DNA of 64,000 nucleotides from an uncultured virus (IMG/VR IMGVR_UViG_3300029705_002947) (lineage: Duplodnaviria; Heunggongvirae; Uroviricota; Caudoviricetes): IMG/VR virus record IMGVR_UViG_3300029705_002947. The stretch is one strand, 5' to 3'. Positions 14,001-61,966 of this stretch are shown in pieces. Each line of letters starts with the position of its first letter. The first letter of the stretch is position 1. Under the pieces are notes generated by a model. That model saw only the letters and a program-made list of their open reading frames with translations. It did not search any database and had not been told where the DNA came from. The translations under genes were made by a program, and so were the position numbers.

Positions 14001-17000
14001 GTAACTGTTAAATATATAGGAGTTGCTGAAGAGCAAACAACTATACCTGCTAATGAAATAGTAACTAGAACTATTTATTGTATAGAAGGGGATTTATCAG
14101 GAACTGCCAATGCAATTAGATTTGGACCAAACGGAAGTGACCCAACAGAATATGAAAAGAAACAATGTTCTTCACTATTAAATATTATAGAATTGGATTT
14201 ATCTTATTATGAAAAAATAACAGGCTTAATAAGATACTGTACAAATATAACATCAATGAATATAACAAAATATCCTACAGTACCTCTAGTGGGAATTGGT
14301 ATAGAATCAGCATTTGCGTCAGCTAAATCATTAACTTCACTAGATGTTAGTAATTTTGATATTAGAAATGTATTTAGTTTACAATGGACATTCTATGATA
14401 TGATGGCTGTAACAAATATAACAGGATTAGAAACATGGAACACATCTAACGTATCATCAACTAAAAGTATGTTTGATAGATGTTTTAATTTAACTTCATT
14501 AGATGTAAGTAATTTTAATACTAGTAATGTAAAAAATATGGGTTATATGTTTACTAACTGTCAAAAATTAACTGAAATAGTAGGAATAGAAAACTTTATT
14601 ACTACTAACGTACAATACATGGAAGGTATGTTTGCTAGTTGTTATTTAATAACTTCATTAGATGTAAGTAATTTTGATACTAGAAACGTAACTAGTATGG
14701 GATATATGTTCAAAGATTGTCAATCATTAACTTCATTAGATGTAAGTAATTTTGATACTAGTAAAGTAACTGATATGACTAAGATGTTTGAAAATTGTAA
14801 TGTGTTACAAACACTAGATGTAAGTAAATGGAATACTAGTAATGTAACTAATATGCTTGCATTATTCCATTATTGCTATGAACTAGATGGATTAGATGTA
14901 AGTAATTGGGATACTAGTAATGTAACTCATATGGAATCTGTATTTAGACATTGTAGAAAATTAAGTTCATTGGATTTAAGTAAATGGAATACTAGCAAAG
15001 TAAATAATATGGTTAGTATGTTTGGAGATTGTTATTCTTTAACTTCATTAGATATCAGTAATTTTGATATGAGTAATGTTATTAGAGCTGAATGGATGTT
15101 AGCTCGTTTAGACAATGCTACTACTATAAACTTAAATAATATTGTTATACATGATGATTGTGCAATAGAAAATTTCTTTACAAAAACAGAAAAAGCAGAA
15201 AGAATTTATATGAATGAAATAGACACATTAGATAAATTAGTTCAATATCTTCCAGATAGAAGTTCGACTACTACTGGACGTATAATAATGCCTAATAAAG
15301 ACCAAGTGTCTGCAGAAACAGTTGCTTTATTGGCTGGTAAAAACTGGCACCTTGGATACTTAATTGCTTCTTATAAATACGACAGTAATATCTATGAGGA
15401 CTTAATACCTATATTCAATTATGACTTTGGTGTGGATAAATATGTTGTTGTGGATACAAATGATAGTAAGGGTGTAATAACAAGAAATATAGAAGATGTT
15501 GATGGCACTATGCCTACTATAGTTAGATTTGGTAGATGGGATAATACACTTTATCCTAGATATACTTGCTTAATTGAATTATGTGATATGGATACCAACT
15601 ATATAACAAACAATGATTATATGTTTGCTGGTTGTATTAATTTGAAATATATAAATACTACTAATTTTAATACTAGTAAAGTAACTACTATGACAGCAAT
15701 GTTCTTTAAATGCCATAGTTTAACTTCATTAGATGTAAGTAATTTTGATACTAGCAATGTAACTAAAATGGATTGGACATTTGAACAATGTACTAGTTTA
15801 ACTTCATCAGATGTAAGTAAATGGGATACTAGTAAAGTAACTGCTATGAACGGTATGTTTATAAACTGTAATTCATTAACTTCATTAGATGTAAGTAATT
15901 TCGACACTAGTAATGTAACTGGTATGGAAGCTATGTTCCATGGTTGTAATAATTTAACTTCATTAGATGTAAGTAATTTTGATACTAGTAATGTAAATAC
16001 TATGCATGCTATGTTTGAGAATTGTAAATTATTAACTTCATTAGATATAAGTAATTTTGATACTAGTAATGTAACTAATATGAGTTATATATTAACAAAT
16101 ACTCCTGAATTAATTAAAATAACATCAAATGACCTAAATACAACTAATTCAATAATTCCACATTTACCTAACAGAACAGGTAAAGAAGCTGGTACTCTTG
16201 CTTACTATGATATAGACCCAGCATTATTAGATACAGAAACATTACAAGCTAAAAACTGGAATTTAAGCTATGAGCCTATAATGGTTAAATACATCTTTGA
16301 TAGTAATGTATATGAAAACTTCTTACCTATAACACCAAGTTATCCACAATCAAACTATGAAGTTATTGATGATGTGAAAGCTGATGGTAGAGTAGTTAGA
16401 ACATTAAAATATAAATCTGATAAGAGACCTACGAGAATAGTATTTGGTGATTCAAGTAGTGCGTTTACAGAAAGTGGTATTTTATCATTATTAGATGTTT
16501 TATATGTAGATATCAAAGAAAATATATCAAGTATGAATAATATATTTGCTAAAGCTGAAAATGTTACTAGAATTAATACTAGAAATTGGGATACTTCTAA
16601 TGTTATAACTTTATATTGTGCATTCTATTCTTGTAAGTCATTAAAACATTTAGAAGTTGGACATTTTAAAACTGATAATGTTACTGACATGACATTTGTA
16701 TTCTATAATAATAAAGTACTAGAATCAGTAGATGTTACTAATTGGAATACAAGTAATGTTACTGCAATGTATGGATTATTTGGTGGAAGTCCTTTCAAAG
16801 AATTGGATTTAAGTAATTGGGATTTTAGTAAGGCTACTAACGTAAGTGCTTTATTTATGAATTGTGAAGCATTAGAAACATTAAATATTTCAAACTGTAA
16901 CATAAATCCAAACTTAACAATTGAACATATGTTTGGCGGAGCTGATAAATTATCTTTAGTTAATGTTAATAATTGTAGTGCAGATGTTATCAACTTATTA

Positions 17001-22407: not shown

Positions 22408-23319
22408 ATGTCTAAATTAGTAGATAAAGATAGACTTGCGAAATTAGCTAAAGCTCTTGATGATAGATCAAAAGCAGGAGACGCAGCTAACGCAGAAGCT
22501 ATCGCACAAGAAGTAGAAGATAGAGAAGCTGCTATAGCACAAGAAGTAGAAGATAGAGAAGCTGCTATAGACGAAGCTGTAACATTCGAAAACGGTATAA
22601 CTACTGTTAATGCTTTAGGAGGAATAGCTGCAGGTACAAGTTTAGATGGAAAATCTGTTACTGAAATACTTGACATGTTATTATTCCCTTATGTAAAACA
22701 AACTATATCTAATGTTAAAGGAACACCTAATGGTGGTACTTTCGAACATGGTAATAACCAAACTATAACTGCAGTTCAAGCTACAGTTACTAAAAAATCT
22801 AAAAAAATAACTAAAGTAGAATTATTACAAGGAACAAATGTATTAGCTGTTAAAGAAGGTGACGAAGTTGCTAATGGTGGTACTTTCACTTTCTCTGGAT
22901 TAAGTGTTGCTGTTAATTCTGTTAACGTTCAATTAAAAGTTAAGGCATACGATGAAACTGGTGCATCTGTTGAAGGTTCAACTGGAGCATTCTCTTTCGT
23001 TTATCCTTATTACTATGGAGTATGTGAAGCAGGAGCTGCTGTAGATGAAGCTTTAGTTGAAGGATTAACTAAAGATGTTTCTGGTAAAGGACAAAAAGCT
23101 TATTCATATACTACAAATAACCAATGTGCAGTAATAGCTTTCCCTAAAGCACATGGTGTATTAAAATCTGCATTAGACCCTAATGCGTTCGAAAATATAG
23201 CTGCATTTACAAGACATGAAGTAACTGTAAATGGATTAGATGGTAAAGATGTTGCTTACTACGTATACGTAAGTGGAGCATTCACTGGTTCTGGATTTAA
23301 ATATACATTCAAATATTAA
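22408..23319 (+). CDS. Virion fibre/decoration protein with Ig-like domain
   Basis: Strong codon bias; N-terminus similar to ORF 701; 30-nt tandem repeat (AIAQEVEDRE twice); YPYYYG...IAFP C-terminal domain. Confidence 0.7.
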   Translation: MSKLVDKDRLAKLAKALDDRSKAGDAANAEAIAQEVEDREAAIAQEVEDREAAIDEAVTFENGITTVNALGGIAAGTSLDGKSVTEILDMLLFPYVKQTISNVKGTPNGGTFEHGNNQTITAVQATVTKKSKKITKVELLQGTNVLAVKEGDEVANGGTFTFSGLSVAVNSVNVQLKVKAYDETGASVEGSTGAFSFVYPYYYGVCEAGAAVDEALVEGLTKDVSGKGQKAYSYTTNNQCAVIAFPKAHGVLKSALDPNAFENIAAFTRHEVTVNGLDGKDVAYYVYVSGAFTGSGFKYTFKY

Positions 23320-28558: not shown

Positions 28559-29095
28559 TTACATTTTACCATATAAATCAACTACAAGTCTTCCTCCTAT
28601 ATTTTTTACAGCAAATTCTGGTTTTAAAACTACATGTTGTCCAGAAATACTATAATCTGTTTGAGCCAATCTTCCTAATTCTGAATGGAATATAATTATA
28701 TTATAAGCTCCCTCTCCAACGCCATATGTTTTTAATTCAAATTCTCTTTGATTTGCTACAGTAGATTCTAATACTTCTTGTCTTACGTCTAAACTCGCAA
28801 CTACAGTTTCATCAGATACTATAGGTTTTCTAAAACTTTGAATTAAATCTATCCATTCATCTGGTTTAAATTCTCCAGCAGTAGAATCTTCTACCATACA
28901 TTTGTAAATATGATGTTTGTCTTTAATATCTTTATAATAAACCTTTTGATTTAAATGATATACTTTAGTATCATCATAATCTTCTACTTCATCAATATTT
29001 ACACGTAGAACTATATCAAATAAAAAAGCTATTAAGTTATCATGATCAAACTTTTTAAGATTCTCTTTAAAATAATTGATACTCAAAATTATCAC
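28559..29095 (-). CDS. Virion-associated protein with a small CBM5/12-like domain
   Basis: YDDTKVY..NQ.VYY......IYKC.......F.PDEW; N-terminus paralogous to the upstream gene. Confidence 0.6.
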   Translation of the reverse strand: MIILSINYFKENLKKFDHDNLIAFLFDIVLRVNIDEVEDYDDTKVYHLNQKVYYKDIKDKHHIYKCMVEDSTAGEFKPDEWIDLIQSFRKPIVSDETVVASLDVRQEVLESTVANQREFELKTYGVGEGAYNIIIFHSELGRLAQTDYSISGQHVVLKPEFAVKNIGGRLVVDLYGKM

Positions 29096-29100
29096 CCTTT

Positions 29101-29892
29101 CTATTCTTTAATTGAGAACATTAATTCCCCATCTACCATTTCTATAACATATTCATTATCTTCTTCATCAAGAACTTTTATTTCTGTTTGTACAGTATAA
29201 ATACTTGTTAATTCGTAATATAAATCATCATCTAACATGAATAATCTATAATTTTCTCCAGTAACACTATCTTTAATGAATACTTCTGGTTTAGAATGTT
29301 TAAGATCTGTTTCAATAACAAACATATCTTCTCCAATTACACCTATTTCGTAATTTAACATGTTACTGCTTAATAAGATTAATCTATCTGGTAATCCTTT
29401 AGATTCTTTTATTTCTATAATAAGTCTGTCCCCAATTTCAATTTTAACATGTGGGAAAAATATTATTTTACCGTTTTCATCTACAATAAAGTCTTTACCT
29501 TCTATATATACTTCATTTCCATTATATATAGTTACAGACGAACCTGGTTTATACCCTGGTATTATTAGATTATCGATATTATCTTTATCAACGATAATTA
29601 TTTCTTCTTTTATTTCAAAGTTACAAACATTTTTTATTTCAGCATCATACGTATCCATTGCATGTTCCCATTCATCAGGATTAAATGGAACAGATGACTT
29701 ATCCACCTTACAACGATATATTTTATGAATACCATTTTCTTTTAAATATATAAAATCTCCTTTTACATACGATTTACCCTCTTCGTAAGGCAAAACGTCT
29801 TCTAAATTAACTACAGTTAAATCTAAAAGGAATCTTAATACATTATAACAATCCAATTTCCCATAGTTTGTTTGTATATATCTTATACTCAA
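29101..29892 (-). CDS. Virion-associated protein: CBM5/12-like domain plus three C-terminal beta-hairpin repeats
   Basis: TTG start with GGAGG SD; YEEGKSY.KGD..Y...IYRC...F.PDEW. Confidence 0.6.
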   Translation of the reverse strand: MSIRYIQTNYGKLDCYNVLRFLLDLTVVNLEDVLPYEEGKSYVKGDFIYLKENGIHKIYRCKVDKSSVPFNPDEWEHAMDTYDAEIKNVCNFEIKEEIIIVDKDNIDNLIIPGYKPGSSVTIYNGNEVYIEGKDFIVDENGKIIFFPHVKIEIGDRLIIEIKESKGLPDRLILLSSNMLNYEIGVIGEDMFVIETDLKHSKPEVFIKDSVTGENYRLFMLDDDLYYELTSIYTVQTEIKVLDEEDNEYVIEMVDGELMFSIKE

Positions 29893-32323: not shown

Positions 32324-32360
32324 ATAAAAAATAAAGAGGTTTCCCTCTTTATTTTTTTAT
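32324..32360 (-). terminator. Terminator after RNAP beta'-N gene
   Basis: AAAAAATAAAGAGG-TTTC-CCTCTTTATTTTTT. Confidence 0.75.
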
Positions 32361-33817
32361 ACTCTACAGAAATGACTTAAACCTATAGCTAAATCTTTTA
32401 TAGGCATCATATTACCACTTAATAATCCGTCATTATGAGATATCATTGAATGTAATTTAGGATTATATTTTCTTGTAGCTTTAATTTGATCTTTAGCAGA
32501 TAGCTTAGTTATTGTTAAGTTGTCGCCATCAAAATCTGCGTTAAGACCTGCTAATATCATTAATGAAATACCCATTGTATAATCATCAACTTTCTTTGTA
32601 ACATCAACTATCTTAACCTGTAATATACTACCCCAATCTATAGTTGGTGCACGGTTGATTAAGCAATATGTTAAATCTTGTGATATCATTAATTTTATAA
32701 TTTTGTATATCTTTTCACTAAAGTTGATACAACCCATATACCATTCACTGTATGCTTGACTTTCTGTAATGTTTTGTGTTGTTGCTAATTTTTGTATTAT
32801 CTCAAACTTATACATTTCTAAGAATGATATATAAGATAATATAATTTCATCTGCTGCTAAGTTTGGATTTGATATTATAACGTTTCTTGATGTATAGTTC
32901 ATTCTTCCTGCTAATACACCTGATTTTATAAACCCATCTTTCTTATTGATTAAACTAAACATCTTTTCATATAATTCATTTACTTTCTTTTGTATATAAG
33001 GTAATTTCTTATCTACTGATAATGTATCATTTGAATTATTCATTCTAGATACAGAACTGAATATCATATTATATATTTTATCAGTTCCATTTACAAAGTT
33101 AATTTCATTTTGTACCATTGCAAATCTTAATGCTGAACTAAACACTGGAATATATTGGAAGAATAATTTATCTTTGTTTGCTTTTACAAATGCAACATTT
33201 CCTTCCATATTTGAATTTCTCTTATTCTTTTCAGCATAATAATCTAATATTTCATCAAATCTTCTTTGGAATTCTAACATACCTATATTCTTAAATGGTT
33301 GATCTTTATCAATTTCAACTTCATCATCCAATAATGGATTACCGAATGCATCCGTATCTATAAACTTAGGTGGTTGTATAATATTCTCTAATATAGATTG
33401 CTTATTCTTTTCACCCATTATATTATTAAGATATAAATATAATGCTGGATGAATTATATGATAATCTTTAATTTTAATATAAGCAAACTTTTCTAAATCT
33501 ATATCAACCAATCTAACATTTGTTCTACAATAAGGACATATAGATGATTCATGTGATTTACCTTCAAGATAGCCACATTCACAACTATATCTTTCTTTGA
33601 ATGCATTTTCACTTGACATTTCACTATAGAAGAAATCCGAACGGATTCCTCCTTTATTATAACTACCATCTGTTGTCTTTTTATCTTTTATCGGTTCATA
33701 TACAACGAATGCTTTTCCTGCTTTTAAATCTAATTCTGCTTCTTTATCTATATCAGCAATTTGTAACATAAATCCATTCTTTTCAATTCCATTATTTCTT
33801 TCTATTATCATACACAT
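32357..33817 (-). CDS. Multisubunit RNA polymerase beta' subunit, N-terminal/catalytic half (probably virion RNAP)
   Basis: Zn finger CECG...CPYC, GRMNYTSRNVI, INRAPTI, catalytic NADFDGD; start may be 33811. Confidence 0.92.
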   Translation of the reverse strand: MCMIIERNNGIEKNGFMLQIADIDKEAELDLKAGKAFVVYEPIKDKKTTDGSYNKGGIRSDFFYSEMSSENAFKERYSCECGYLEGKSHESSICPYCRTNVRLVDIDLEKFAYIKIKDYHIIHPALYLYLNNIMGEKNKQSILENIIQPPKFIDTDAFGNPLLDDEVEIDKDQPFKNIGMLEFQRRFDEILDYYAEKNKRNSNMEGNVAFVKANKDKLFFQYIPVFSSALRFAMVQNEINFVNGTDKIYNMIFSSVSRMNNSNDTLSVDKKLPYIQKKVNELYEKMFSLINKKDGFIKSGVLAGRMNYTSRNVIISNPNLAADEIILSYISFLEMYKFEIIQKLATTQNITESQAYSEWYMGCINFSEKIYKIIKLMISQDLTYCLINRAPTIDWGSILQVKIVDVTKKVDDYTMGISLMILAGLNADFDGDNLTITKLSAKDQIKATRKYNPKLHSMISHNDGLLSGNMMPIKDLAIGLSHFCRV

Positions 33818-48834: not shown

Positions 48835-50046
48835 TTACATTTTACCATCTTCTTTCATTTTTATTATAACTTTCTTTAACCATGTATCATATCTACCCAT
48901 TAATTCCATATTTCCTAAATCATATTTTGTTAAATGAGCAATATCGTGTTTTTCAGGTTCACCACTTTCTATTTTATATTCTAACATACTTGTATCTATT
49001 TTTATTAAAGATATAACACCCATATGTTCAGAACTAACTTTATTATCGTTAGATTGAATTAAATACATAGGTTCTATTTCTATTATATCTTCAACTTTTA
49101 ATGTTAACTCTTCAGTTACTTCTTTCTTTAAATTTCTATTCATTATCGTTTTTAATCTTGATCTAGATGTATCTCTTTTATCTACAGCCATATGTCCTTG
49201 GATCATTGTAAATTTACCTTTGAATCTCTCTCCCTTACATTTTAAAACTATTAATTCATTTTTATGAACATCATATACAACAGCTCCGATTACTAACTGT
49301 TTTACATCATCTCCATTATATTCTAGCGTATTTCTATTAGCTTTAAATAAGTTTATTCGTGTGTATAATTTATCTGTTACTGGAAGAATTTCACAAGGTA
49401 ATTTGAAATCTGTATAATATATCATTTCATCATATCTTTCATATAATCCATTTTGTCTAAATACTAAATCTCTGTTTATTTTAAACTGTTCTGTTCCAGG
49501 TGTGTATTTATAAATTTGTGCTACTAACGGATCTATAGCATCCATATCATCATCTGATATAGCACTCGAACCTACTGGAGTTCTGTATATAGAACCGTCT
49601 AATTTAACTAATTTAACACCTGCTTCTTTAGCCATTTGTTTTGTAAACTCGTTTTCATATTCGTCAATATAATATATTTCTTTAATTCCTGATTGAACTG
49701 TTAATTTAAAACATGTAACACAAGGATACGTGTTTACATATAGAACAGCTCCTCTTAAATCCTCTCCCGTTTTTAATGCGTTCATTATTGCATTCTGTTC
49801 AGCGTGTACAGCATAACACATATCAAGCATTTGTCCTGATGGTATGTTATGTGCACTTCTATAACATCTATTACAATTATCTATACAATTAGGAAGCCCA
49901 CTAGGAGCTCCATTATATCCTGTTGATAAAATTCTATTATCTTTAACTATAACTGCACCAACTTTTCTTCTCATACATGTACTTCTTAAACTAACTTGAA
50001 CACAAATGTTCATATAATAATCGTTAACATTAATTCTTCTATTCAT
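48835..50046 (-). CDS. dCMP deaminase fused to a Nudix-like domain
   Basis: RSTC.RR.VGA, TGYNG, HAEQN, PCVTC; C-terminal QGH...LKKEVTEEL and HMG. Confidence 0.85.
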   Translation of the reverse strand: MNRRINVNDYYMNICVQVSLRSTCMRRKVGAVIVKDNRILSTGYNGAPSGLPNCIDNCNRCYRSAHNIPSGQMLDMCYAVHAEQNAIMNALKTGEDLRGAVLYVNTYPCVTCFKLTVQSGIKEIYYIDEYENEFTKQMAKEAGVKLVKLDGSIYRTPVGSSAISDDDMDAIDPLVAQIYKYTPGTEQFKINRDLVFRQNGLYERYDEMIYYTDFKLPCEILPVTDKLYTRINLFKANRNTLEYNGDDVKQLVIGAVVYDVHKNELIVLKCKGERFKGKFTMIQGHMAVDKRDTSRSRLKTIMNRNLKKEVTEELTLKVEDIIEIEPMYLIQSNDNKVSSEHMGVISLIKIDTSMLEYKIESGEPEKHDIAHLTKYDLGNMELMGRYDTWLKKVIIKMKEDGKM

Positions 50047-50059
50047 ATTTTATTACCTC

Positions 50060-50809
50060 CTAATCATTAATTTCAACTTTATAATTATACATAGCCTCAT
50101 AAAGATTGTTTGGTATAATATCTCTATATTCATCTGCAACTTTTTGAATATATTTTTCTTTAAACATTTTATAAGCCTCAAAAGCTTTTATTGTCGTATC
50201 ATATCTACCTAATTGGACTCTACCATCGAGTGTATTACATGATACATATATACTTTTACCATGATAATAACAACCGATAGGTAAATTACCTCGACGCATA
50301 TCATTTTTTGTAAATAAACTATTTATCCTTTGTGGTACGAATGTACACGTTTCAGATGAATATTGTAAATTACCTTTAATTAAAATATCTTTATCCAAAT
50401 GCATAATTTCGCCTGGTATTTCATAATAATTTTCATCGAACCAACTTGCGAAATTTTGAAAACAAAGCCAATCATCAGATACATAACAATTGATATATGA
50501 AGGATTTGATGTTGCAGTTACTTTATCATAACAACGAGCTATCATATGTTTCCATACATTATAACTATGAGGATGGGTTTTATGTGAATACTGTCCTTCA
50601 CCTATATACCCTACTCCATATACAGATTTGTCATAAACATTTTTAACTTCTCCTTTTATAAATGCTTGATAATTTGTATAAGTTTGATATTTGTATTCAT
50701 CTTGAAATTCAACTAACACTTTTCTATTATTAATATATTCTATTATTTTCATGACAGTTCCCTTCTTATTAAAAGACTCTTCTCCTAAATGATCTACTGA
50801 TTTTCTCAT
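50060..50809 (-). CDS. Free-standing HNH-type homing endonuclease
   Basis: W..MI.RCY, W.CFQNF..W, LDKDIL..GN..YS.ETC.FVP..IN, C-terminal LG.Y.T...AF..Y. Confidence 0.75.
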   Translation of the reverse strand: MRKSVDHLGEESFNKKGTVMKIIEYINNRKVLVEFQDEYKYQTYTNYQAFIKGEVKNVYDKSVYGVGYIGEGQYSHKTHPHSYNVWKHMIARCYDKVTATSNPSYINCYVSDDWLCFQNFASWFDENYYEIPGEIMHLDKDILIKGNLQYSSETCTFVPQRINSLFTKNDMRRGNLPIGCYYHGKSIYVSCNTLDGRVQLGRYDTTIKAFEAYKMFKEKYIQKVADEYRDIIPNNLYEAMYNYKVEIND

Positions 50810-50850: not shown

Positions 50851-51414
50851 CTAATTTAATTTTTCATAAGCCATTTTATCAACTATTTGATTACCTTCGA
50901 ATATCATTTTAAATGTTTCTAAATCTATATCAAAATATTTGTCTATGAATTTCTTATGCATATGAAGTATTTTACTTTCGTTATTATGTGAATTAATATG
51001 GCATATATAAACTGGAATAAACAATTGTAATGATAATATATTTATATATGCAGATTTAATTAATTCTTGGTTCTTTACTTCTCCTGTTGTACTCATAAGA
51101 GTTTCGTCAGTTGCTTTCTTTAACCAACCTTTCATCCATTCATTTAACGATTTTTCGCATAATTGTGAATCAGTTATAATTACGACATTATTGCAATCAT
51201 GTATCTCAACCATGTTTTCTAATACATATTTAGTTCCTTTATATATAGCGTACATTTCAGCATAATTATTCGTATGGTTTCTTAACAAGATAGATTCTTT
51301 ATGAACTATTTTACCATTTACATATATAACATATGCAGCAGCTGCATCAAATCCTTTAGAATTATTAGCACTTATAGAACTGCCATCAGTTACAACATAA
51401 ATAGAATTATTCAT
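50851..51414 (-). CDS. rnhA: Ribonuclease HI
   Basis: TDGS, TNNYAE, TDS, VKNQEL, H..SH, GN..VD..A; SD sets the start at 51414. Confidence 0.9.
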   Translation of the reverse strand: MNNSIYVVTDGSSISANNSKGFDAAAAYVIYVNGKIVHKESILLRNHTNNYAEMYAIYKGTKYVLENMVEIHDCNNVVIITDSQLCEKSLNEWMKGWLKKATDETLMSTTGEVKNQELIKSAYINILSLQLFIPVYICHINSHNNESKILHMHKKFIDKYFDIDLETFKMIFEGNQIVDKMAYEKLN

Positions 51415-51445
51415 ATTAAATACCTCCTTATATTTATTCACTATT

Positions 51446-51477
51446 ATAATATATAATCAAAATAACACCAATTTACA
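51446..51477 (-). promoter_or_regulatory. Early-type promoter motif
   Basis: TGTAAA-N18-TATATTAT. Confidence 0.7.
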
Positions 51478-51490
51478 CAAACATATCTAT

Positions 51491-51580
51491 AAGTAGTCAT
51501 AGGACTACTCTAAGATCTCTCTGGGATCATTAGAATTTTACCTCCAATAAAATTTGATAAAATATATTTTTTATTTAATT
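51491..51580 (+). ncRNA. Candidate sRNA with an anti-SD (CCUCC) loop
   Basis: AACATATCTATA motif at 51480-51491 with no + ORF downstream; three contiguous hairpins; 3' end uncertain. Confidence 0.5.
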
Positions 51581-51593
51581 AAACAGTACGGAA

Positions 51594-51640
51594 AAAATAT
51601 GTGTATATAGTGATATGAATTCACTATATACACATATTTT
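51594..51640. terminator. Long bidirectional terminator
   Basis: AAAATATGTGTATATAGTGA...TCACTATATACACATATTTT. Confidence 0.8.
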
Positions 51641-51867
51641 ATTTAGTTAATAATGCTATCTTACCTTATCCACTATTGATAAGTAACACTATTAACAAAT
51701 ACCGCTCACTCCTACATCAGTATACGGTACACCACACTATTAGCCAAAAGTGTGATTAGTTGAGAATAAACCTACTAAGCCTCGGTGGCGAGATGCAATC
51801 TAGCGAGCATATATATAATGTAGTATATACACATACTCCCGTACCCTCCACTTTTATTCTTCTCCCT
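51594..51867 (-). ncRNA. Candidate ~270-nt structured ncRNA
   Basis: AACAATTATGTA motif at 51878-51867, locally raised GC, several G-U-containing stems, ends in a terminator. Confidence 0.6.
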
Positions 51868-51896
51868 ACATAATTGTTATGTTGGATAAAATTTCA

Positions 51897-52397
51897 TTAA
51901 CGTTTATGTCTCTTTTTATTTTTAGTTTCATTTCTCATATCGTCTCTTTTTGAAATTCTATGTGTTTTTTTCGAAACATAATTATTCATTTTTGCAGCTG
52001 CATTAAATTCATTATTATTTTCACTCATCGTTTTTAATGAAATATTTTTAACACTTTCTATTAGGTCATAACCTAAGTACATTAAATCTGATTTAATATC
52101 TGGCATAACATCTAGTGTTAAATAGTTCATTATTTCATCTCTATATTCATTGTCATAATCTAACAGTAATATATTTATACCCTCTTCTGATATAAAAGTG
52201 TCATCCTCAATAGTCATTAGATAACATCCATTTATATACTCTTCTTCATCTATTTGTAATATCCTAAGAACGTTAACTAATTCATACCATTTATAGCCAA
52301 GGTCATCGATAAACACAGGAGAATCTACTTCAAATAAACAATAAAGTTCATTTAATAGAATTTCCAATGTACAGTATTTATTATTTAAATTGTACAT
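51897..52397 (-). CDS. Bro-N-like DNA-binding protein
   Basis: W+....V..IL and FISEEG+..L+ pattern; likely start MYNL at 52397. Confidence 0.5.
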   Translation of the reverse strand: MYNLNNKYCTLEILLNELYCLFEVDSPVFIDDLGYKWYELVNVLRILQIDEEEYINGCYLMTIEDDTFISEEGINILLLDYDNEYRDEIMNYLTLDVMPDIKSDLMYLGYDLIESVKNISLKTMSENNNEFNAAAKMNNYVSKKTHRISKRDDMRNETKNKKRHKR

Positions 52398-52707
52398 TAT
52401 ATAAGCACCCCTCTTTCTCGATTTTATCTTTAACAAATTCAACGAACTCATCAGTTATTTCAAAAATGAAATGTTGTCTACCACGTTTAAAAATAAATCT
52501 CTCCCTAAAATATAATGCGTATAATTCTCTTTCCCTAGCTCTAAATTTTATATTAACACAGAGTTTTCCTAATTTAACAGTAGTATTAGGATTTTCTTCT
52601 ATTGCCAATATACCCATAGATTTTAACATATTGGTTACACTTTCAGTATCAGCGTTCACTAGTTCACCTATCATATTATACGGATAATATCTTATTTCGT
52701 TTTCCAT
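52381..52707 (-). CDS. Hypothetical protein
   Basis: AAGGAG SD; AACAAATATTTA motif at 52730-52741. Confidence 0.7.
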   Translation of the reverse strand: MENEIRYYPYNMIGELVNADTESVTNMLKSMGILAIEENPNTTVKLGKLCVNIKFRARERELYALYFRERFIFKRGRQHFIFEITDEFVEFVKDKIEKEGCLYNVQFK

Positions 52708-52750: not shown

Positions 52751-53446
52751 TTATTTTTTTGGATCTGTAACAATCTTCTTCATAAATTCTTCCTGTCCTA
52801 TTAAAGATAAAGGTCTGAAACCATCTACATCAATATATGTATATTTAGTTTCCAATAGAGAATAATCTTGACATTCTTTAGAGAATTTTACTATATTCTT
52901 TAACTTGTCTTTCATATCTTGAGGCATATAAGGTTCATATTCTTTATAGAATAATAACCAATCTCCTCTAACATTTTGAACAGGTATAAATAACATTCCC
53001 TCATGTACTAACTTATGAACTGTTGTTGATAAAGGTATTAACCCAACTCTACATTGATAATGTAATTTCATAACTTCTTCACATATTTCAAATAGATTAA
53101 TTTCCCCATAATAATCCATGTGTTTAAGAAGAACCGTCATAGTTATATCATATAATGTAAATGGCGAATGATGAATTTCTACTTTAAACTTACTATAATG
53201 ATCCATCTTAGAATTTCCAAAGAAACTACATTTAGTCATATCAATATAATCTTTAAGAAACTTAATGTAATCTTTATACTCTAAACTAGAACGTATCATT
53301 CTTTCACATGTCTTAACAGTTTTAATCTTATCTTTCTCAGAAGCTATATTATATATCATATCAACATCAGGGATCTTAGAAATATCAACTTCCTCTATAA
53401 GTCTATCATTCTTATAACTTTCTATTTGTTTTGGTACCAATCTCAT
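52751..53446 (-). CDS. HNH-like protein, paralogue of 40937-41611
   Basis: ERMIRSS.EY..YI, VEIHHSPFTLYD, LSTTVHKLVH; TACA-N6-TA variant at 53462-53473. Confidence 0.6.
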   Translation of the reverse strand: MRLVPKQIESYKNDRLIEEVDISKIPDVDMIYNIASEKDKIKTVKTCERMIRSSLEYKDYIKFLKDYIDMTKCSFFGNSKMDHYSKFKVEIHHSPFTLYDITMTVLLKHMDYYGEINLFEICEEVMKLHYQCRVGLIPLSTTVHKLVHEGMLFIPVQNVRGDWLLFYKEYEPYMPQDMKDKLKNIVKFSKECQDYSLLETKYTYIDVDGFRPLSLIGQEEFMKKIVTDPKK

Positions 53447-54388: not shown

Positions 54389-57300
54389 CTATAAGTAAAT
54401 TTGTTGTTGTTTAATCCAATCTTCAGATACAGCTTTAGCTGCATTATAGTTAGTTACTTTAGTACATTGATGTAATGCACCCCAGAAACCATTTTGATCT
54501 CCTTGTAATGCTGTAAATTTAGCTCCGTTCCAGAATTCAGGAGATGTACCTTCAAGATTAGCACATCTATAGAATATACCATAAACCATTCTTAATTTTT
54601 TATTTTGACCTCCACCATTTAAGAATGTCGCTCCAACACTCGTCATATTAGTAAATGCGAACATTTTTCTTGCATCTGTAATAGTGTTTATTGAGTTTCC
54701 AAATAATAATGGAGATACAGCACCTGTAACTGGTGTACCCATAAATAATTCATAAACAGTAGTAACTTTAGCTTGTTTATCAAATGTTCTAGGATGTACT
54801 TGACAGTTAGTAGGAACTTTATACATTCTATTAAATACAGAACTACAATCTGTTAGTGCTGTACATTTTTCAAATAATACAGGATTACAAATATAAGTTA
54901 TACCTGTCTCCTCTTCAATATAACCTTTATTTATAGCTTGACAATCTTTAAATAATCCTGAAATATTTGTAAGTTTAGTATATTTACGAGATTGATTTTC
55001 TGTAAATAATAAGTCATGTGGTATTCCACCTGGCATTTTTATACATTTATTAAACATGTTAGAAATACTAGTAAGTTCTAAACATTCCGCCAATAATCCT
55101 AATTGATTAACTTTTATAGCATCACCTATTTCAGCTATAACATAATAGTTACCACTAGCATTAATTATAGTAGCTAAGTTAGGAGATAAGTTAACAACGT
55201 CCGAATAAGCAACTTCTGTAAATGGATCGTTCATAAATTCTACAACACGTAACGCACCTTCAGTATCCGCTGTTACTAGTTTATATGATGTTATACCTTG
55301 CACAGTTTCATATTCACCAGTTGGTAATTCTTCATCGATAGATTCACAACCAGCAAACATACCTGTTGTATTAGTTAATGTTTTTCTACAAGTATCGAAT
55401 AATAATAATGGTATTCCTCCAGAAACCATTTTACAATTTTGCATGAAGTATTGTGCTTGTTGTAAGTTAACACAATCTACAAATAAATCTTCTGGTATAG
55501 TACCAGTGAAAGTTTCACAACCATTTATAAATGCTGAAACCGATGTTAAACTTCCACAATTTTTAAACCATTCATTACTTATACCAGTTTGTGGGTCTTC
55601 ACCATTTCTAACATCTATATTAACTCCTGAAAGAGCAGCACAACCACTAAACATATATGAAACAGTTTGTAATAACTGAGCTGAATTTTTAAATAAACCT
55701 TTAGGAATATGTCCTTCAATTTTACTACATCCTTCAAAGAAACAACCCATATCATAAATAAGTTTGTTATTTATAAATAAATCTTCACAAACACTATTTC
55801 CACGTGTTAATACGTTAGATCCTTCATAGTAGTGACAGTCCACTAATGATTTACAGTTTCTAAACATTCCTGCTACTATTTGTACTTTAGGTACAGTATT
55901 TAAGAATGTTTCATGATAACCTGTTATACTAGTAGCTTGGAAGAAACCTTCATTTGGATACCTAGCAGTTGACCAAGGTTGGTTATCTTCTGTATTCATA
56001 CCAAGGTTAACTAAGTTTTCAGCACCTAAGAAGAATCTAGAACTTACTATACCTTCCATAGCGTTACATTCAGCAAATACACCAACAGCTTTAGTTAAGT
56101 TAGGTAATTTATTAGTATCCCCTATATTAACTCTAAATAAACTTTCTGGTACTGTTGGTATTTTTCTACATCTTTGGAACATACCATTCATCTTAGTCAA
56201 TTTAGTATTTTTAGATAAGAATCCATTAGGTATTTCACATGTTAAGTTTTGATAACAATCGAAGAACATGTAAGCACAGTTAGTTAAATTAACCAATGGA
56301 TACATCATTTCTCCTAGTCCTTCTTCTCCAGATGCTAATGTATAACAACCACTAAACATTGCAAATGTAGAAGTTATATTTGGACTTCCTATAAATATAT
56401 TAGGATATTCATCTATATAATGTGTTAATTTATGTGAACTTGCAAATATAGATGAAACTGTGTTTAATTTAGGTTTATTATGTAGTAAATTTGGTCCTAC
56501 TGTAGTTAAGTTAGGCATTCTACTAAATGTATAAGATAAATTATTTATTGTGTCTGCACAAGGATTGAATAAATCTCCATGTACAGAAGTATATCCTGTA
56601 ATATCAAATGCATGATAAGCATTTTGTAAATTACGGTTTTCACTAAATAAATCAGCAGGTATTTCAGTTGTAGTATCTTCGGAAGTACCTAGTATACCAA
56701 CTAGTTGGTCTTCACTATACATATGACACATTCCTGTAATGTCTGTTAACGTTCCACCACAAGCATCTAATAATTTTTTAATCATAGGTGTTTTTGCTCT
56801 AAAACATCTATCGAACATATAAGACGCATTAGTAACTCCTACAAAGTTAAAATCAAGTCCATCTATATCTGATAATAAATAACAACTTGCAAATAAATTT
56901 GAAATTGAATTATTTGCGTTTGTTAATTCTCCTGATATTTTAGTTAAATTCTTACATGCATAGAATAATCTTTGTAAGTTTCCTGTAAATTGTATATCTC
57001 TTATTTCTGTTAATGATGTTGCACTATCAAATGATAAGAATGATAGATTAGTTAATTGAATCATATCAATAACTTCATCTTTAACATCTTCAGAACCGTA
57101 TTGTATCTTTGTTACACTTGAGTTTGATAAGTCTAGATGTTCTAACGTATCCCATGGTAAAGCAGACTCACCATTAGCTGCTTTAATTGCTTCTATTTCA
57201 TTTAAATATTTAGGTAATCTTATAGTATGTGCTGATGTTGTTTGTGAAACTATAAGTTTCTTCAAGTTGTACATTGAATACAGTTTTAAGTCCCTCATAA

Positions 57301-60300
57301 CTGGACTAGTATTACCTTTCATATTTAAAGTCTCTATATTATAACTATTAGTAACATCAAAACCTGCTATAGACTTACATTCTGATAAATTAACATCTTT
57401 AACTTTTGTACAGTTAGTTACTGTGAAATTTTGTATTGTTGAACCAGCAACATCAACAGTTTCAATTCTATTACATCTGTTTAATTCGAATTTATTTATA
57501 TTATCACAACCAGTAATTCTTATATCGTCTAAGAACTCTGCCCCATCTATTGAAATATTTTTAATACTGCTTCCTGTTAAGTTTATACTATTAAGCACTG
57601 TATCTCTAGGGAATACTATACCTGTAAATGCAGTATAAGCTATATCAACAGTTTTTAAGTTTTTACAGTTACTTAGGTCTAATGATTGAGATTCAGTAGC
57701 TGTACCTAATAAATAAGAGTTAGTACAGTTAAGATTTCTTAAGTATATATTATTACCTACTTTAAGACCATTCATACGGTTAGAATATGAGAAGTCTAAT
57801 TCAAGTATTTTAGTTGCATGTTCTATTCTGGCTTCAGTTAAGTTCAATGATTGTAATCTGTTTATACGCTTAATATTACCTGCTCCAGTTATAGCCATCT
57901 CTTTATTTACACCTCTTATTGGGAATGAGAATAGTGTTCCTTCATGTTCTATTCCTGTATCAGGGTCTTTATATCTAGATTCAGGACCAACATAAGCAGT
58001 AACTTTACCATCGGCACCAGAACCGATACTTACTGTTACATATTGTGGTGAATATGTACTTATACCTAAATAACAACGTACTGTAGTACCTTCACCTTGA
58101 CCATATGCAGCATCTGAACGTAATCCTATTTCAGTATTTAACGAACCTGATTCTTTATAATCAAATATAGTATCTAAGAATATCAATCTTTCTTTTAAGA
58201 ATTTTTTATATTTTTGTGCTCTGTTACCATGAAGCATTTGTAAATAAGTAGAGTCTTTTTCTGTAACTTGAGATAAATATTTAGAAGCGGCATCTTTATT
58301 AAAATAAATTTCTCCTATTACATCATCTGTATCCGCCCATATAGATCTAGTTATATTCTCATAAGAATACACTCCACTACTTCTTAATTGATTATATGCT
58401 TTTTTAATTTCATCTTTAAACTCTTCAGCGAAAGCATTCCAAAGTTTACTTGATGTAGTATTATAGTTCATGTAACGTAAATCTGTTGTTTCATCAATAT
58501 GACTAGAACCTGCAAACGTACCTTCTGCGTTGGTAGGTGACATATCGTCTAATATTTCTGCGTCAACACGTATTATTTCTGTACCTGTATTTGAAAGTCC
58601 CATCTGTGTATCCATGTCATATGGTCTTGGATAGAATTTAACTCCATCCCATGTATCCCACATTGAGTTTTTACCACAGTTGTCGACTTGTGTGAACATT
58701 TGCATTTGTAAATAATATGCTAATGTGTAAGTTAAATCTAAATGAGCTTCAAAATCTTTTTTGAATGTTCCAGCTTTTATAGAATCACTTACCCAATTAA
58801 CCAAGTCAACCATTGGTCTATAAGTAGCTTTTTCATCGTCTTCGTTAAATGTATATCTAGCTTCAAAGTCATCCATTATATAATCTATCTCATCATAATC
58901 TGCAACGAATTCTTCGAATGTCAAATAACTTATAGTTCCATCAGCTATACCTGCTTTAAATTGATCCATTGTACATTTTTCTGGAGTAAGACCGTATTCT
59001 TTAAGATATTCTTCATAAGAGTCATCTAAATAATATTTATAAACGTTTTTTATAGAATCTTCTAGTTTATAGAAACATCCTGCTGTATCATTTGCATTGG
59101 CAGTTGCTTCGTAAGAAATACAACTATCTTTACCAGAACCTATAACATCACCGTGGTCATCATATAAATCACATTCAAATCCTAATTCTTTACCCTCTTT
59201 ATCTATATTAAACATAAATGATCCAACTAAAACGTTTTCACTACTAGCTTCACCTTCATTATAATAAACTATACAAGGGAAACCATCTATAGCATCATGA
59301 TACCCGTCTTTTTTAGCTGGAGACATACCACCTAATTCGTCTATAACTTGATTATAGAATCTTGCAGTAGGTGTATTATTTTTATGTGATTGCTCCATAT
59401 AGTCACATTTCAATGTATAGCAGCTATCTTCTACCCAATCAGGTGCGTTAGGAGGAGCAAATTTAAATTTAGATGTTTTTTCTTGATCTACCCATGTTTT
59501 TATTTTATAGTTTTTAACAGGATATTGTAGTGAAGATGTACCTTGTAAATATACGTCAACATTATCAAAAACTATAATATTACCTTCACCATCATCATAT
59601 TCCATTACACAGTCAACAAATGTCTTTTTAGATTCTTTTTTATCTTTAATTGAGTGTAATGTAGCAAATTTAGCGTTTCCTTTAAATTCTTCTCCACCTT
59701 TTCTTTTAAATACTATTGTAGGTAAAGATGCAATTTCTAAGTTATTTTTATCATTTTTTTTCTGTTGTTCTTCACTATCATATATATGAGATATGTAGTT
59801 TTGTAATACTTCAGAAGATTTTAAGAAACTATTATAAATACGTATGAATTTTATTTCACATTCCCCAAAGTTCTCAAATGATATTTCGCCAGCAGCATTA
59901 ATCATTCTACAAGCATTAAGAATCAATGGATAAGCTTGTTTTGAACCATCTAAGAATTCATCTTTTTCCGATAATGTAGTACAAGAACAAAGAACACCGT
60001 TTATATATACACGAAGTGTTTTTGTAGGGTTAGCATCTTCTATCATGGCTTGCCCGACATGATCGAATGTTCTGACATTATTATCTACTACTAATGTTAT
60101 ATGAACCCATTCATCTTCCACGAATTGTAATTTGTTTACTTGTAAGTTAGATCCTATAGCCATAGTATCATATGATATAGCAACACCTGGGTCGCCTATA
60201 GAGTCTGCTTTCATACATGTCATGACTCTAGCATTTAATTCCCCTATATTTCTAGTACGTATAGCTGTTTCAAGTGTAAATCCTTGTTGACCACCCATAC

Positions 60301-61966
60301 TAAATATTGAGAATGGACTATAAGGACGTGGTTCCCCATTTACCATTTGAACCAGTTCCCCATATGACTCACCTGTAAATTTAAGCATCATTTCTCCGTC
60401 ATCTTCATCAGTTAATGTTTCATCAATATGTTTCCATCCATTAGATGAATAGTTTAATCCATGAAGTAATATTCTATATTTATCCCCTGTATGTCTAGAA
60501 GAGTTTTGCCATACATCTGGAGAACCGTCATTATTTCTTTTTGCATTAGCATCGAAATATGCGATTAAGTTAGGGTTATCTATATAAGGAACTTTTTGAT
60601 ATGTTGATGTAACTACTGTCATAACTTTTATAGCTGGTTCTTTTGTTTCAACAAGTCTATCGACAGTATATGCTTTTAAAATATATCTATAAGTACCTTC
60701 TTCTAATTTACCTACTGACCAATAGTTAGTTATATTAACCCTAGAAGAAATTCCTGCATCGGCAGTTTTAGCAACTAATTCCCATGATCCTAAGTTATCT
60801 TTATAAAGTTCACCTGTCATTACAAAGTAATCTGCTATTTTAGATATAACCCTAAAAGGAATAGAGAAATACATATTAGTATCAACTTGTTGGTCTTTAG
60901 CTTCATCTATGATAGCTATTTCATTTTCTTCAAGAACTCTAAATACATATTCTAGTTTATTAGATGTAAACACACCTTCAGTAGTATCATTTACACTTTC
61001 ACCTGTATATGCTTGAGCATGTAATCTATATAATCCACGTTTAGGTATTCCAGTTGAAGTCCATACAGATTCCATATATGTTCCTTCTAACACTTCTGTA
61101 GTTTCTGCTACAGTTTCACCAGTTTCAACATTTACGATTCCTATGTTTAATTTCATATTAGCACTAGCATCTGCTAATGAAGCTATATATGGGAATTCTA
61201 CAGAATCACCTTCTTCATAAATAGCAGTTAATAAGGTTTCTTCAAATGTACTTGTTAATTTTAATCCTCCGACTATAACTTTAAATGTTAATGTTTCTGG
61301 AGCAGGTATAGTTAAATAATCAGTAGCAGTTACTGTTATAGTATATGAACCATCAGTAGTTATTCTACCTAAGTTAGCTATAACAGAACCTTTAGCTCCA
61401 TTCCATGCTTTTACTAAAGAACCATCTCTATACACACGATACTTACCATCACCATATGTATTACTCATAAAGTTAAATTTTATAATTAATTCTTCATCGT
61501 CTTTTAAATATATTTTAGTACCCTCTGGCATACTAGCATCATATGATAAAGTTGGTATTGATGATTCTTTTTTATTTATTTTATCCCAAGTTGCTGGTAC
61601 TTTTTTACCATTTTCATCTTCTTTAACAGAAGTTACTATATAAAATCCTGGATTGTCGTCATCAGACTCATCTGAAATTATATAAAATATAGATCCAACA
61701 TTAGCTTTACTTTTAAGCATATCTCTATAATTTGGAACTATAGTTGTACTTGTACTACTTACTGAACTCCATACACCTGGTGTACCACCTTCATTACAAA
61801 TCCATATAGGTTCATCTACAGAAGTAGCACTGTCATTAATAATCATATCCCCAGTTAAATAAGTACCTTCAGTTGGAATAGAACTACCTCTCATTATTCT
61901 ATTCTCTGTAAAATAGGTATTATTTTTATCAGAGATTAATTTATTCTTTTTATTATTCTCAGACAT
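54389..61966 (-). CDS. 2525-aa putative tail/receptor-binding protein: Ig-like, LamG-like, CotH-kinase-like and LRR domains
   Basis: WVHITLV...LRVYING...IKFIRIYN (LamG); QGTSS..YP.KNY, LKCDY.E.SH, IDGFP, VDN.GKN, PYDMDT.MG (CotH-like); BspA-like IP..LF..C..L repeats. Confidence 0.75.
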   Translation of the reverse strand: MSENNKKNKLISDKNNTYFTENRIMRGSSIPTEGTYLTGDMIINDSATSVDEPIWICNEGGTPGVWSSVSSTSTTIVPNYRDMLKSKANVGSIFYIISDESDDDNPGFYIVTSVKEDENGKKVPATWDKINKKESSIPTLSYDASMPEGTKIYLKDDEELIIKFNFMSNTYGDGKYRVYRDGSLVKAWNGAKGSVIANLGRITTDGSYTITVTATDYLTIPAPETLTFKVIVGGLKLTSTFEETLLTAIYEEGDSVEFPYIASLADASANMKLNIGIVNVETGETVAETTEVLEGTYMESVWTSTGIPKRGLYRLHAQAYTGESVNDTTEGVFTSNKLEYVFRVLEENEIAIIDEAKDQQVDTNMYFSIPFRVISKIADYFVMTGELYKDNLGSWELVAKTADAGISSRVNITNYWSVGKLEEGTYRYILKAYTVDRLVETKEPAIKVMTVVTSTYQKVPYIDNPNLIAYFDANAKRNNDGSPDVWQNSSRHTGDKYRILLHGLNYSSNGWKHIDETLTDEDDGEMMLKFTGESYGELVQMVNGEPRPYSPFSIFSMGGQQGFTLETAIRTRNIGELNARVMTCMKADSIGDPGVAISYDTMAIGSNLQVNKLQFVEDEWVHITLVVDNNVRTFDHVGQAMIEDANPTKTLRVYINGVLCSCTTLSEKDEFLDGSKQAYPLILNACRMINAAGEISFENFGECEIKFIRIYNSFLKSSEVLQNYISHIYDSEEQQKKNDKNNLEIASLPTIVFKRKGGEEFKGNAKFATLHSIKDKKESKKTFVDCVMEYDDGEGNIIVFDNVDVYLQGTSSLQYPVKNYKIKTWVDQEKTSKFKFAPPNAPDWVEDSCYTLKCDYMEQSHKNNTPTARFYNQVIDELGGMSPAKKDGYHDAIDGFPCIVYYNEGEASSENVLVGSFMFNIDKEGKELGFECDLYDDHGDVIGSGKDSCISYEATANANDTAGCFYKLEDSIKNVYKYYLDDSYEEYLKEYGLTPEKCTMDQFKAGIADGTISYLTFEEFVADYDEIDYIMDDFEARYTFNEDDEKATYRPMVDLVNWVSDSIKAGTFKKDFEAHLDLTYTLAYYLQMQMFTQVDNCGKNSMWDTWDGVKFYPRPYDMDTQMGLSNTGTEIIRVDAEILDDMSPTNAEGTFAGSSHIDETTDLRYMNYNTTSSKLWNAFAEEFKDEIKKAYNQLRSSGVYSYENITRSIWADTDDVIGEIYFNKDAASKYLSQVTEKDSTYLQMLHGNRAQKYKKFLKERLIFLDTIFDYKESGSLNTEIGLRSDAAYGQGEGTTVRCYLGISTYSPQYVTVSIGSGADGKVTAYVGPESRYKDPDTGIEHEGTLFSFPIRGVNKEMAITGAGNIKRINRLQSLNLTEARIEHATKILELDFSYSNRMNGLKVGNNIYLRNLNCTNSYLLGTATESQSLDLSNCKNLKTVDIAYTAFTGIVFPRDTVLNSINLTGSSIKNISIDGAEFLDDIRITGCDNINKFELNRCNRIETVDVAGSTIQNFTVTNCTKVKDVNLSECKSIAGFDVTNSYNIETLNMKGNTSPVMRDLKLYSMYNLKKLIVSQTTSAHTIRLPKYLNEIEAIKAANGESALPWDTLEHLDLSNSSVTKIQYGSEDVKDEVIDMIQLTNLSFLSFDSATSLTEIRDIQFTGNLQRLFYACKNLTKISGELTNANNSISNLFASCYLLSDIDGLDFNFVGVTNASYMFDRCFRAKTPMIKKLLDACGGTLTDITGMCHMYSEDQLVGILGTSEDTTTEIPADLFSENRNLQNAYHAFDITGYTSVHGDLFNPCADTINNLSYTFSRMPNLTTVGPNLLHNKPKLNTVSSIFASSHKLTHYIDEYPNIFIGSPNITSTFAMFSGCYTLASGEEGLGEMMYPLVNLTNCAYMFFDCYQNLTCEIPNGFLSKNTKLTKMNGMFQRCRKIPTVPESLFRVNIGDTNKLPNLTKAVGVFAECNAMEGIVSSRFFLGAENLVNLGMNTEDNQPWSTARYPNEGFFQATSITGYHETFLNTVPKVQIVAGMFRNCKSLVDCHYYEGSNVLTRGNSVCEDLFINNKLIYDMGCFFEGCSKIEGHIPKGLFKNSAQLLQTVSYMFSGCAALSGVNIDVRNGEDPQTGISNEWFKNCGSLTSVSAFINGCETFTGTIPEDLFVDCVNLQQAQYFMQNCKMVSGGIPLLLFDTCRKTLTNTTGMFAGCESIDEELPTGEYETVQGITSYKLVTADTEGALRVVEFMNDPFTEVAYSDVVNLSPNLATIINASGNYYVIAEIGDAIKVNQLGLLAECLELTSISNMFNKCIKMPGGIPHDLLFTENQSRKYTKLTNISGLFKDCQAINKGYIEEETGITYICNPVLFEKCTALTDCSSVFNRMYKVPTNCQVHPRTFDKQAKVTTVYELFMGTPVTGAVSPLLFGNSINTITDARKMFAFTNMTSVGATFLNGGGQNKKLRMVYGIFYRCANLEGTSPEFWNGAKFTALQGDQNGFWGALHQCTKVTNYNAAKAVSEDWIKQQQIYL

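Follow-up and report, generated by a model that had tools for sequence, protein, structure and literature searches.

A conserved non-coding element of an AR9-like jumbo phage, predicted to specify a late small RNA with an accessible anti-Shine-Dalgarno motif

This study describes a conserved non-coding element (51480-51650, + strand) in the 455-nt gap between the RNase H gene rnhA and a 184-aa open reading frame (ORF) of a jumbo phage. On its sequence, the element is a predicted RNA whose kind is known but whose sequence family is new. A late + strand RNA is probably made from it, and the single most likely mechanism among several, which we propose tentatively, is that this RNA acts through pairing of an open CCUCC motif with Shine-Dalgarno (SD) regions. 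An initial annotation had proposed a late small RNA with an anti-SD loop at this place; its observation was partly confirmed and its interpretation is partly supported by the present analysis. All positions given here refer to the window, that is, the whole stretch of 64,000 nucleotides that was analysed.

The window corresponds to bases 75030-139029, read on the reverse strand, of one virus contig of 202,636 bases, which has a G+C content of 28% (72% A+T) and represents an AR9/PBS1-like jumbo phage of 202.6 kb from animal-gut metagenomes. In the neighbourhood of the element, the protein encoded at 52751-53446 shares 41% identity with hypothetical proteins of the Bacillus phages AR9 and PBS1, and it is also similar to proteins of Staphylococcus, Listeria and Yersinia jumbo phages. 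A 486-aa ORF matching the Rpb1 domain 2 presumably represents a split beta'-like subunit of a phage multisubunit RNA polymerase, and the PF00562 beta domain had no match anywhere in the contig. No tRNA or tmRNA gene was found in the window or in the whole genome. The features that are needed for the following discussion are as follows.

32357-33817, - strand: RNA polymerase beta'-like ORF of 486 aa
50851-51414, - strand: rnhA (RNase H), whose true start is the ATG at 51414
51439-51470, - strand: early promoter of rnhA, GGT..GATTATATATTAT-N6-G, with the start at G51439
51480-51491, + strand: AR9-type late promoter motif AACA-N6-TA, AACATATCTATA, with the predicted start at A51491
51493-51510, + strand: stem-loop 1 at the 5' end, AGTAGTC-ATAG-GACTACT, 7 bp with the loop AUAG
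51510-51533, + strand: stem-loop 2, CTAAGATCTC-TCT-GGGATCATTAG, 10 pairs including one U.G, and one bulged A
51510-51545, - strand: consensus-like ribosome binding site (RBS) GGAGGTAA, 10-nt spacer and mini-ORF ATG..TAG (MIPERS), not conserved
51534-51554, + strand: open linker with UUACCUCC at 51538-51545, invariant in five rows of the alignment
51553-51583, + strand: AU-rich hairpin or tract, UUGAUAAAAUAUAUUUUUUAUUUAAUU, nearly invariant
51590-51878, - strand: RNA B, a predicted structured non-coding RNA of about 280 nt, with a late promoter at 51878-51867, ending at the terminator common to the element
51594-51640, both strands: bidirectional intrinsic terminator, a 20-bp perfect inverted repeat common to the convergent - strand RNA
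51897-52451, - strand: ORF of 184 aa without an assigned function, the other flank of the 455-nt gap

Several other genes of this phage were noted along the way. Between a dCMP deaminase gene and rnhA lies a gene (50060-50809, - strand) for a free-standing HNH homing endonuclease of PHROG 953, and it is a mobile insertion, because its homologue in the related genome G001 occupies a different locus (28665-29449). The dCMP deaminase domain is fused to a C-terminal part of about 250 aa that belongs to a PHROG without an assigned function (48835-50046, - strand), a fusion protein that fits the nucleotide metabolism of uracil-DNA phages. Two giant ORFs encode 5058 aa (2058-17234, + strand) and 2525 aa (54389-61966, - strand), the latter matching solely PHROGs without an assigned function.

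Concerning the promoters, the available part of the AR9 transcription study gives an early consensus of AAATATATATTAT-N6-G and a late consensus of AACA-N6-TA/G, the last base of which is the start (PMC5312081). The early sites of the present phage are of the same kind as those of AR9: about 17 of them, all on the same strand, share aGGTaaaATTTC-[A/G]ATTATATATTAT-aaaagt-G, and their consensus is AATTATATATTAT-N6-G. The late motif AACA-N6-T[AG] occurs 391 times genome-wide on both strands. Its density is 5.2 per kb in non-coding DNA (66 instances in 12,615 bases) versus 1.7 per kb in coding DNA, and 61 of the 66 non-coding instances are oriented toward the next gene, mostly 20-50 nt upstream of it. 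This distribution indicates that the motif serves as a putative promoter in this phage. Two of the five motifs that lack such an orientation are located at the locus of the element.

The element and the early promoter of rnhA stand back to back, as the initial annotation had described. The early promoter (GATTATATATTAT-N6-G at 51458-51439, - strand) is real, since the phage's own matrix of early promoters gives it a score of 36.4, the eighth highest genome-wide. On the other side, AACATATCTATA fits AACA-N6-TA, and no + strand ORF of at least 20 aa with an RBS follows this motif, in agreement with the original description of a late motif without a downstream ORF. The context of this late promoter is atypical and weak compared with the canonical late promoters of the phage: together with its flanks the motif has a score of 1.2, which all 47 canonical late promoters exceed under direct scoring and 98% of them exceed by leave-one-out, and which 59% of 325 chance instances of the motif in coding DNA equal or surpass. 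The homologues have context scores of 0.6, 5.9 and 1.0. The 13-mer, taken literally, does not form a repeated motif (19 matches with at most two mismatches, versus 16.2 expected). In the four lineages that carry the element, the sequence reads AACA-TATCTA-TA, AACA-TATGTA-TA, AACA-AAATTA-TA and AACA-TTACAA-TA; none of the six motif columns varies, as against five of the six spacer columns. For this pattern of a kept motif and a free spacer, the hypergeometric probability is 6/792 = 0.008, a value computed after the data had been seen.

Hairpins 1 and 2, as well as UUACCUCC, were read in the sequence at the places originally claimed for them. In stem-loop 1, every cell is paired in the five rows, one pair being U-A in two rows and U.G in three. 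The loop of stem-loop 2 differs between lineages, and its stem shows two one-sided changes, both to G.U on the + strand. Inversely, the third hairpin of the initial annotation, with seven A-U pairs and a 7-nt loop, did not hold: folded alone it has an energy of +0.40 kcal/mol, its pair probabilities are 0.02-0.04, it is missing from both the minimum free energy fold and the RNAalifold consensus, and its 3' arm pairs into the AU-rich hairpin. The display of an anti-SD sequence was therefore upheld in one respect and corrected in another, since CCUCC on the + strand is accessible and invariant but lies in the open linker, not in the loop of hairpin 3. About 19 nt of the linker containing CCUCC are unpaired in single-sequence and consensus folds, and the mean probability of being unpaired for UUACCUCC is 0.75, 0.92, 0.98 and 0.91 in the four homologues. 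The terminator hairpin, which serves both strands, contains seven pairs with compensatory changes among the four lineages. When the terminator is left out, the + strand fold has a z-score of -2.38 (5 of 200 shuffles as good) and the - strand fold one of -1.11 (23 of 200 shuffles as good). No Rfam family reached the gathering score in the window, and the matches obtained with E values up to 10 for the window, L002 and L012 were miRNA-like hairpin noise.

The element was found in four lineages, namely the window itself (identical with L001, the same phage), L013, L012 and L002/L003, the RNase H of the last being 55% identical. The whole genome of L002 (G001) was compared with the contig of the window (G000). 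The 80 nt at 51499-51578 are 93.8% identical between the two, against 76.2% for aligned coding DNA and 77.5% for aligned non-coding DNA, and this is one of only six fully non-coding segments among the 102 80-nt segments with at least 90% identity. Three of the other five are located at the contig end (G000 201397-202636, outside the window); they are 95-97.5% identical to G001 and represent the most conserved non-coding DNA of this comparison. According to a covariance model, the element is single-copy in both genomes.

The block is kept in all four lineages despite differing flanks, including an extra gene in L002, and a core of about 95 nt is near-invariant throughout. Because the whole core is near-invariant, the invariance of CCUCC is not specific; such conservation of the entire core suggests, on sequence grounds, that constraints beyond a seed may act on it. 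None of 21 listed sequencing runs was an RNA run containing the stretch; in the contig sets of four runs, two of which are probably DNA, many related phages from animal-gut samples cover the block. Scans of IMG/VR, both protein-seeded and with DNA patterns, recovered the element only from the phage of the window and the L002/L003 lineage, and a metagenome scan gave five hits, of which two were true (L012 and L013) and three were chance. The element was not found in scans of prokaryote genomes, and distant DNA searches of GenBank phages gave no match or AT-rich noise only. The covariance model detected no homologue in AR9, where the best match reached 33 bits on a terminator hairpin. The candidates L010, L032, L035, L037, L050, L053 and L054 were rejected as chance matches in coding DNA.

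The convergent neighbour, RNA B, is better supported than the + strand RNA of the element. Its promoter, directly after the stop of the 184-aa ORF, is the best-scoring late promoter of the genome (21.1), and the homologues of this promoter score 18.6, 14.9 and 15.0. The stretch behind it is more G+C-rich, is conserved with indels in the four lineages, measures 280 nt in the window, 320 nt in L012 and 398 nt in L002, and has a T6 run at the terminator. The - strand consensus fold has -44.6 kcal/mol and 76 pairs, 27 of them compensatory, compared with -24.3 kcal/mol and 34 pairs for the + strand of the same region; folding and covariation thus strongly favour the - strand orientation of this predicted RNA. 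As read in the sequence, its reading frames break between the window and L013, and no Rfam family matched it.

A 12-nt perfect complement was noted between the terminator arm (51598-51609) and the 5' part of RNA B (51824-51835), which is probably low-complexity chance. The idea that this repeat forms an anti-terminator was abandoned, as the repeat is not kept in L013 and L012. A separate structured non-coding family with three copies was observed outside the window (G000 about 22430-22560, + strand; 67870-67990, + strand; 173190-173320, - strand). Its members consist of an early-promoter-like AT-rich box followed by a closing stem, CAACAACTTcTT...AAgAAGTTGTT, that encloses two hairpins; they show compensatory changes between copies, have similar copies in G001 and are not tRNAs according to ARAGORN.

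Concerning the possible targets, 38 sites in the genome carry GGAGGTAA, the complement of UUACCUCC, including the one on the - strand of the element itself. GGAGG of the RBS type occurs 76 times genome-wide and continues with TAA in 30 cases. The seven genes initially listed as targets all carry GGAGGTAA, and all seven sites are of the RBS type, none being among the 86 of the 162 genomic GGAGG sequences that lack an ORF of at least 30 codons 4-12 nt downstream. Among the strong RBS forms of the phage, the one to which UUACCUCC is complementary is the commonest, but the complementarity is not selective. The genes preceded by GGAGGTAA number 4 of 11 among those proximal to early promoters, 8 of 60 among those proximal to late promoters and 18 of 91 among those inside operons (Fisher p=0.082), and the median predicted energy of the duplex between the seed and the translation initiation region is -12.6, -9.8 and -10.7 kcal/mol for the early, late and operon-internal genes, respectively (Mann-Whitney p=0.085). 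The selective silencing of early or metabolic genes that had been proposed thus amounts to a non-significant trend. Because the class bias of GGAGGTAA is non-significant, a late anti-GGAGG RNA would also strike many late genes.

From these data, we infer the transcription of the element, its timing, its 3' end and any effect on translation as follows. The stretch from 51491 to about 51650 on the + strand would be a small non-coding gene of an AR9-like jumbo phage, whose weak-context AACA-N6-TA promoter would be read by the non-virion RNA polymerase of the phage late in infection. Its product would be an RNA of about 155 nt that starts with two stable hairpins, continues with about 19 unpaired bases containing UUACCUCC and an AU-rich hairpin, and ends at the 20-bp terminator common to the convergent RNA gene. 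The open CCUCC may pair with GGAGG(UAA) Shine-Dalgarno regions in the style of Gram-positive sRNAs with a C-rich seed, and this pairing would lower ribosome loading on a subset of phage, perhaps also host, mRNAs.

The choice of strand is central to this proposal. On the + strand, 96.6% of the 117 cells pair, and four stem pairs vary, each through a change of one partner that yields G.U, with a fifth change of this type in the AU-rich hairpin. The same stem changes read on the - strand give A.C or C.A, and stem 1 shrinks to four pairs. The strand-biased substitutions amount to four to five events versus none (one-sided p 0.06-0.03), and RNAalifold gave -44.4 kcal/mol for the + strand and -33.3 kcal/mol for the - strand. 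The shuffle control for stem pairing (500/500) was uninformative. No two-sided compensatory change was found in hairpins 1-3; the only compensatory pairs, seven in number, are in the terminator. Taken together, the promoter pattern, the stems that change only to G.U and the poor conservation of the mini-ORF favour a late RNA of the + strand.

Under the alternative that the - strand is the functional one, the block would be a leader ahead of rnhA that combines a strong RBS with a very short, start-stop-like ORF and is carried on transcripts that arise by read-through or went unrecognised, or else it would be the relic of a lost gene start. In three of the four lineages, GGAGGTAA is indeed followed by an ATG 9-10 nt downstream, the invariant - strand hairpin AUUUUAUC/GGUAAAAU could mask the SD sequence, and the upstream AT-rich block agrees at 12 of 13 positions with the AR9 early consensus as given in the available part of its source. 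The ATG at 51530 and the stop at 51510 that delimit the mini-ORF MIPERS exist as the initial annotation stated, and a translated mini-ORF had been named there as the finding that would speak against a + strand RNA. The frame, however, is not conserved: it encodes MIPERS in the window, MI-stop in L013 and MIYERP in L012, and has no ATG in L002/L003 (6, 2, 6 and 0 codons), with a frame-breaking internal indel of 1 nt, so that neither the reading frame nor the peptide of a leader or upstream ORF is kept in the four lineages. Further, the mini-ORF sits behind the 20-bp terminator with its T6 run. The AT-rich block was rejected as an early promoter, as it lacks the +1 G and obtains a score of -8.3 (rank 1662) with the phage's own matrix of early promoters; this being the best early-matrix score in the block, no upstream promoter for a leader peptide was found on the same strand. 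In addition, rnhA is served by an early promoter that lies downstream of the block, the stem substitutions become C.A mismatches, and the fold z-score is -1.11. We therefore give little credence to a functional - strand.

Even if the late + strand RNA is real, it may work without titrating SD sequences, through protein binding, through 3' pairing with RNA B, to which it would have 50-60 nt of perfect 3' complementarity, or as an antisense guard, pairing with late transcripts that read through from RNA B into rnhA and destroying them. This explanation accommodates the conservation of the entire core and not of the seed alone, the bidirectional terminator that is common to the strongly promoted, structured RNA B, the perfect complementarity of the element RNA to any - strand read-through and the absence of significant class selectivity among the predicted SD targets. 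An open CCUCC that matches the commonest RBS form of the phage would be left unexplained, however; we regard this explanation as unlikely, while giving it real weight. The element may also act as DNA, either as a binding site for a phage protein or as a replication origin composed of a promoter and an unwinding element. In T4 oriF/oriG and ColE1, the transcript forms an R-loop at the origin, and such an R-loop transcript would fit a promoter that reads into a near-invariant 27-nt AT-rich tract between hairpins, a perfect 20-bp palindrome and an adjoining RNase H gene. The conserved AT-rich tract is present downstream of the promoter, but the genome itself is 72% A+T. The segment 51400-51900 contains no iteron-like repeats and only short families of two copies, the GC skew tracks gene direction without an origin signal, and the one-directional G.U pattern indicates selection on RNA, which makes a DNA-level role improbable. 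Lastly, the block may have no discrete function, being promoter and terminator clutter that looks conserved owing to recent short-patch exchange among related phages. These phages are mosaic, with the HNH endonuclease gene here in one lineage and elsewhere in another, only four lineages are known, and the promoter context is poor. The differences between lineages nevertheless fall in the spacer, the loops and the G.U-compatible stem positions rather than at random, and the block is kept in all four lineages though the flanks differ, so that we see only a slim chance for this explanation. SD pairing by a late + strand RNA accordingly stays our preferred, tentative reading.

Jumbo phages with their own RNA polymerases make small RNAs, none of which has an established function. 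If the RNA of the element is made, it offers a testable idea of how a virus may retune translation, namely by masking ribosome binding sites with an RNA whose timing is set by the late polymerase. In a more far-reaching proposal, which we consider speculative and rather improbable, AR9-like gut jumbo phages would encode a class of late anti-SD RNAs, made by the phage polymerase, that titrate the strongest GGAGG(UAA) RBSs and act as a temporal switch lowering the translation of early genes (and of the host) once late transcription starts, perhaps jointly with RNA B. Between an early operon and an early gene, the locus accommodates two conserved, predicted non-coding genes in convergent orientation, which makes it a compact system for the study of RNA biology in uracil-DNA jumbo phages. 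Should the element prove untranscribed, it would still count among the few non-coding blocks that are strongly conserved between both genomes, and its conservation would need explaining.

Several likenesses and differences link the element with known systems. Late units of AR9 have the same AACA-N6-TA/G motif, whose last base is the start, and terminate at predicted hairpins, as is predicted for the element; the available part of the same source also describes late promoters that no gene follows, and from seven of these antisense RNA is made (PMC5312081). The phage of the window is uncultivated and distinct from AR9, with protein identities of about 41% at most. Among the late motifs that are orphan or have long leaders (35 in AR9 and 40 in G001), none in AR9 has a free CCUCC, and the only CCTCC in G001 is that of the homologue of the element. 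In AR9, CCTCC occurs within the first 10 nt in two cases, in both as the antisense to the RBS and ATG of a gene, and in a third case it lies 146 nt downstream.

Small RNAs of other jumbo phages are comparable in their layout. Eleven sRNAs, one of them conserved with phiKZ, are given for 201phi2-1 (PMC11512511), and the intergenic sRNA candidate misc_4 for phiR1-37 (PMC4848604), in the available parts of these reports. As described there, these units are short, non-coding and bounded by a promoter and a terminator, and some are conserved across relatives, all of which is like the element; they differ in having been seen as transcripts, the element being known from sequence prediction. They have no sequence relation to the element, and the same parts of the reports mention no anti-SD motif. 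A search of the literature for phage-encoded sRNAs with an anti-Shine-Dalgarno motif returned only an unrelated paper.

The closest functional parallels come from Firmicutes, in which RNAIII of S. aureus is an sRNA whose C-rich seed pairs with SD regions. RsaE/RoxS are likewise sRNAs of Firmicutes with C-rich seeds that pair with SD regions, according to the available parts of two studies (PMC6158497, PMC5419742). Compared with the RsaE/RoxS type, the element has a single CCUCC in place of repeated UCCC/CCC motifs, is encoded by a phage under a putative phage-polymerase promoter, and matches no Rfam model in sequence or structure. Like RsaE/RoxS and RNAIII, it combines a short RNA, predicted in this case, with an unpaired C-rich motif complementary to the SD sequence and an intrinsic terminator.
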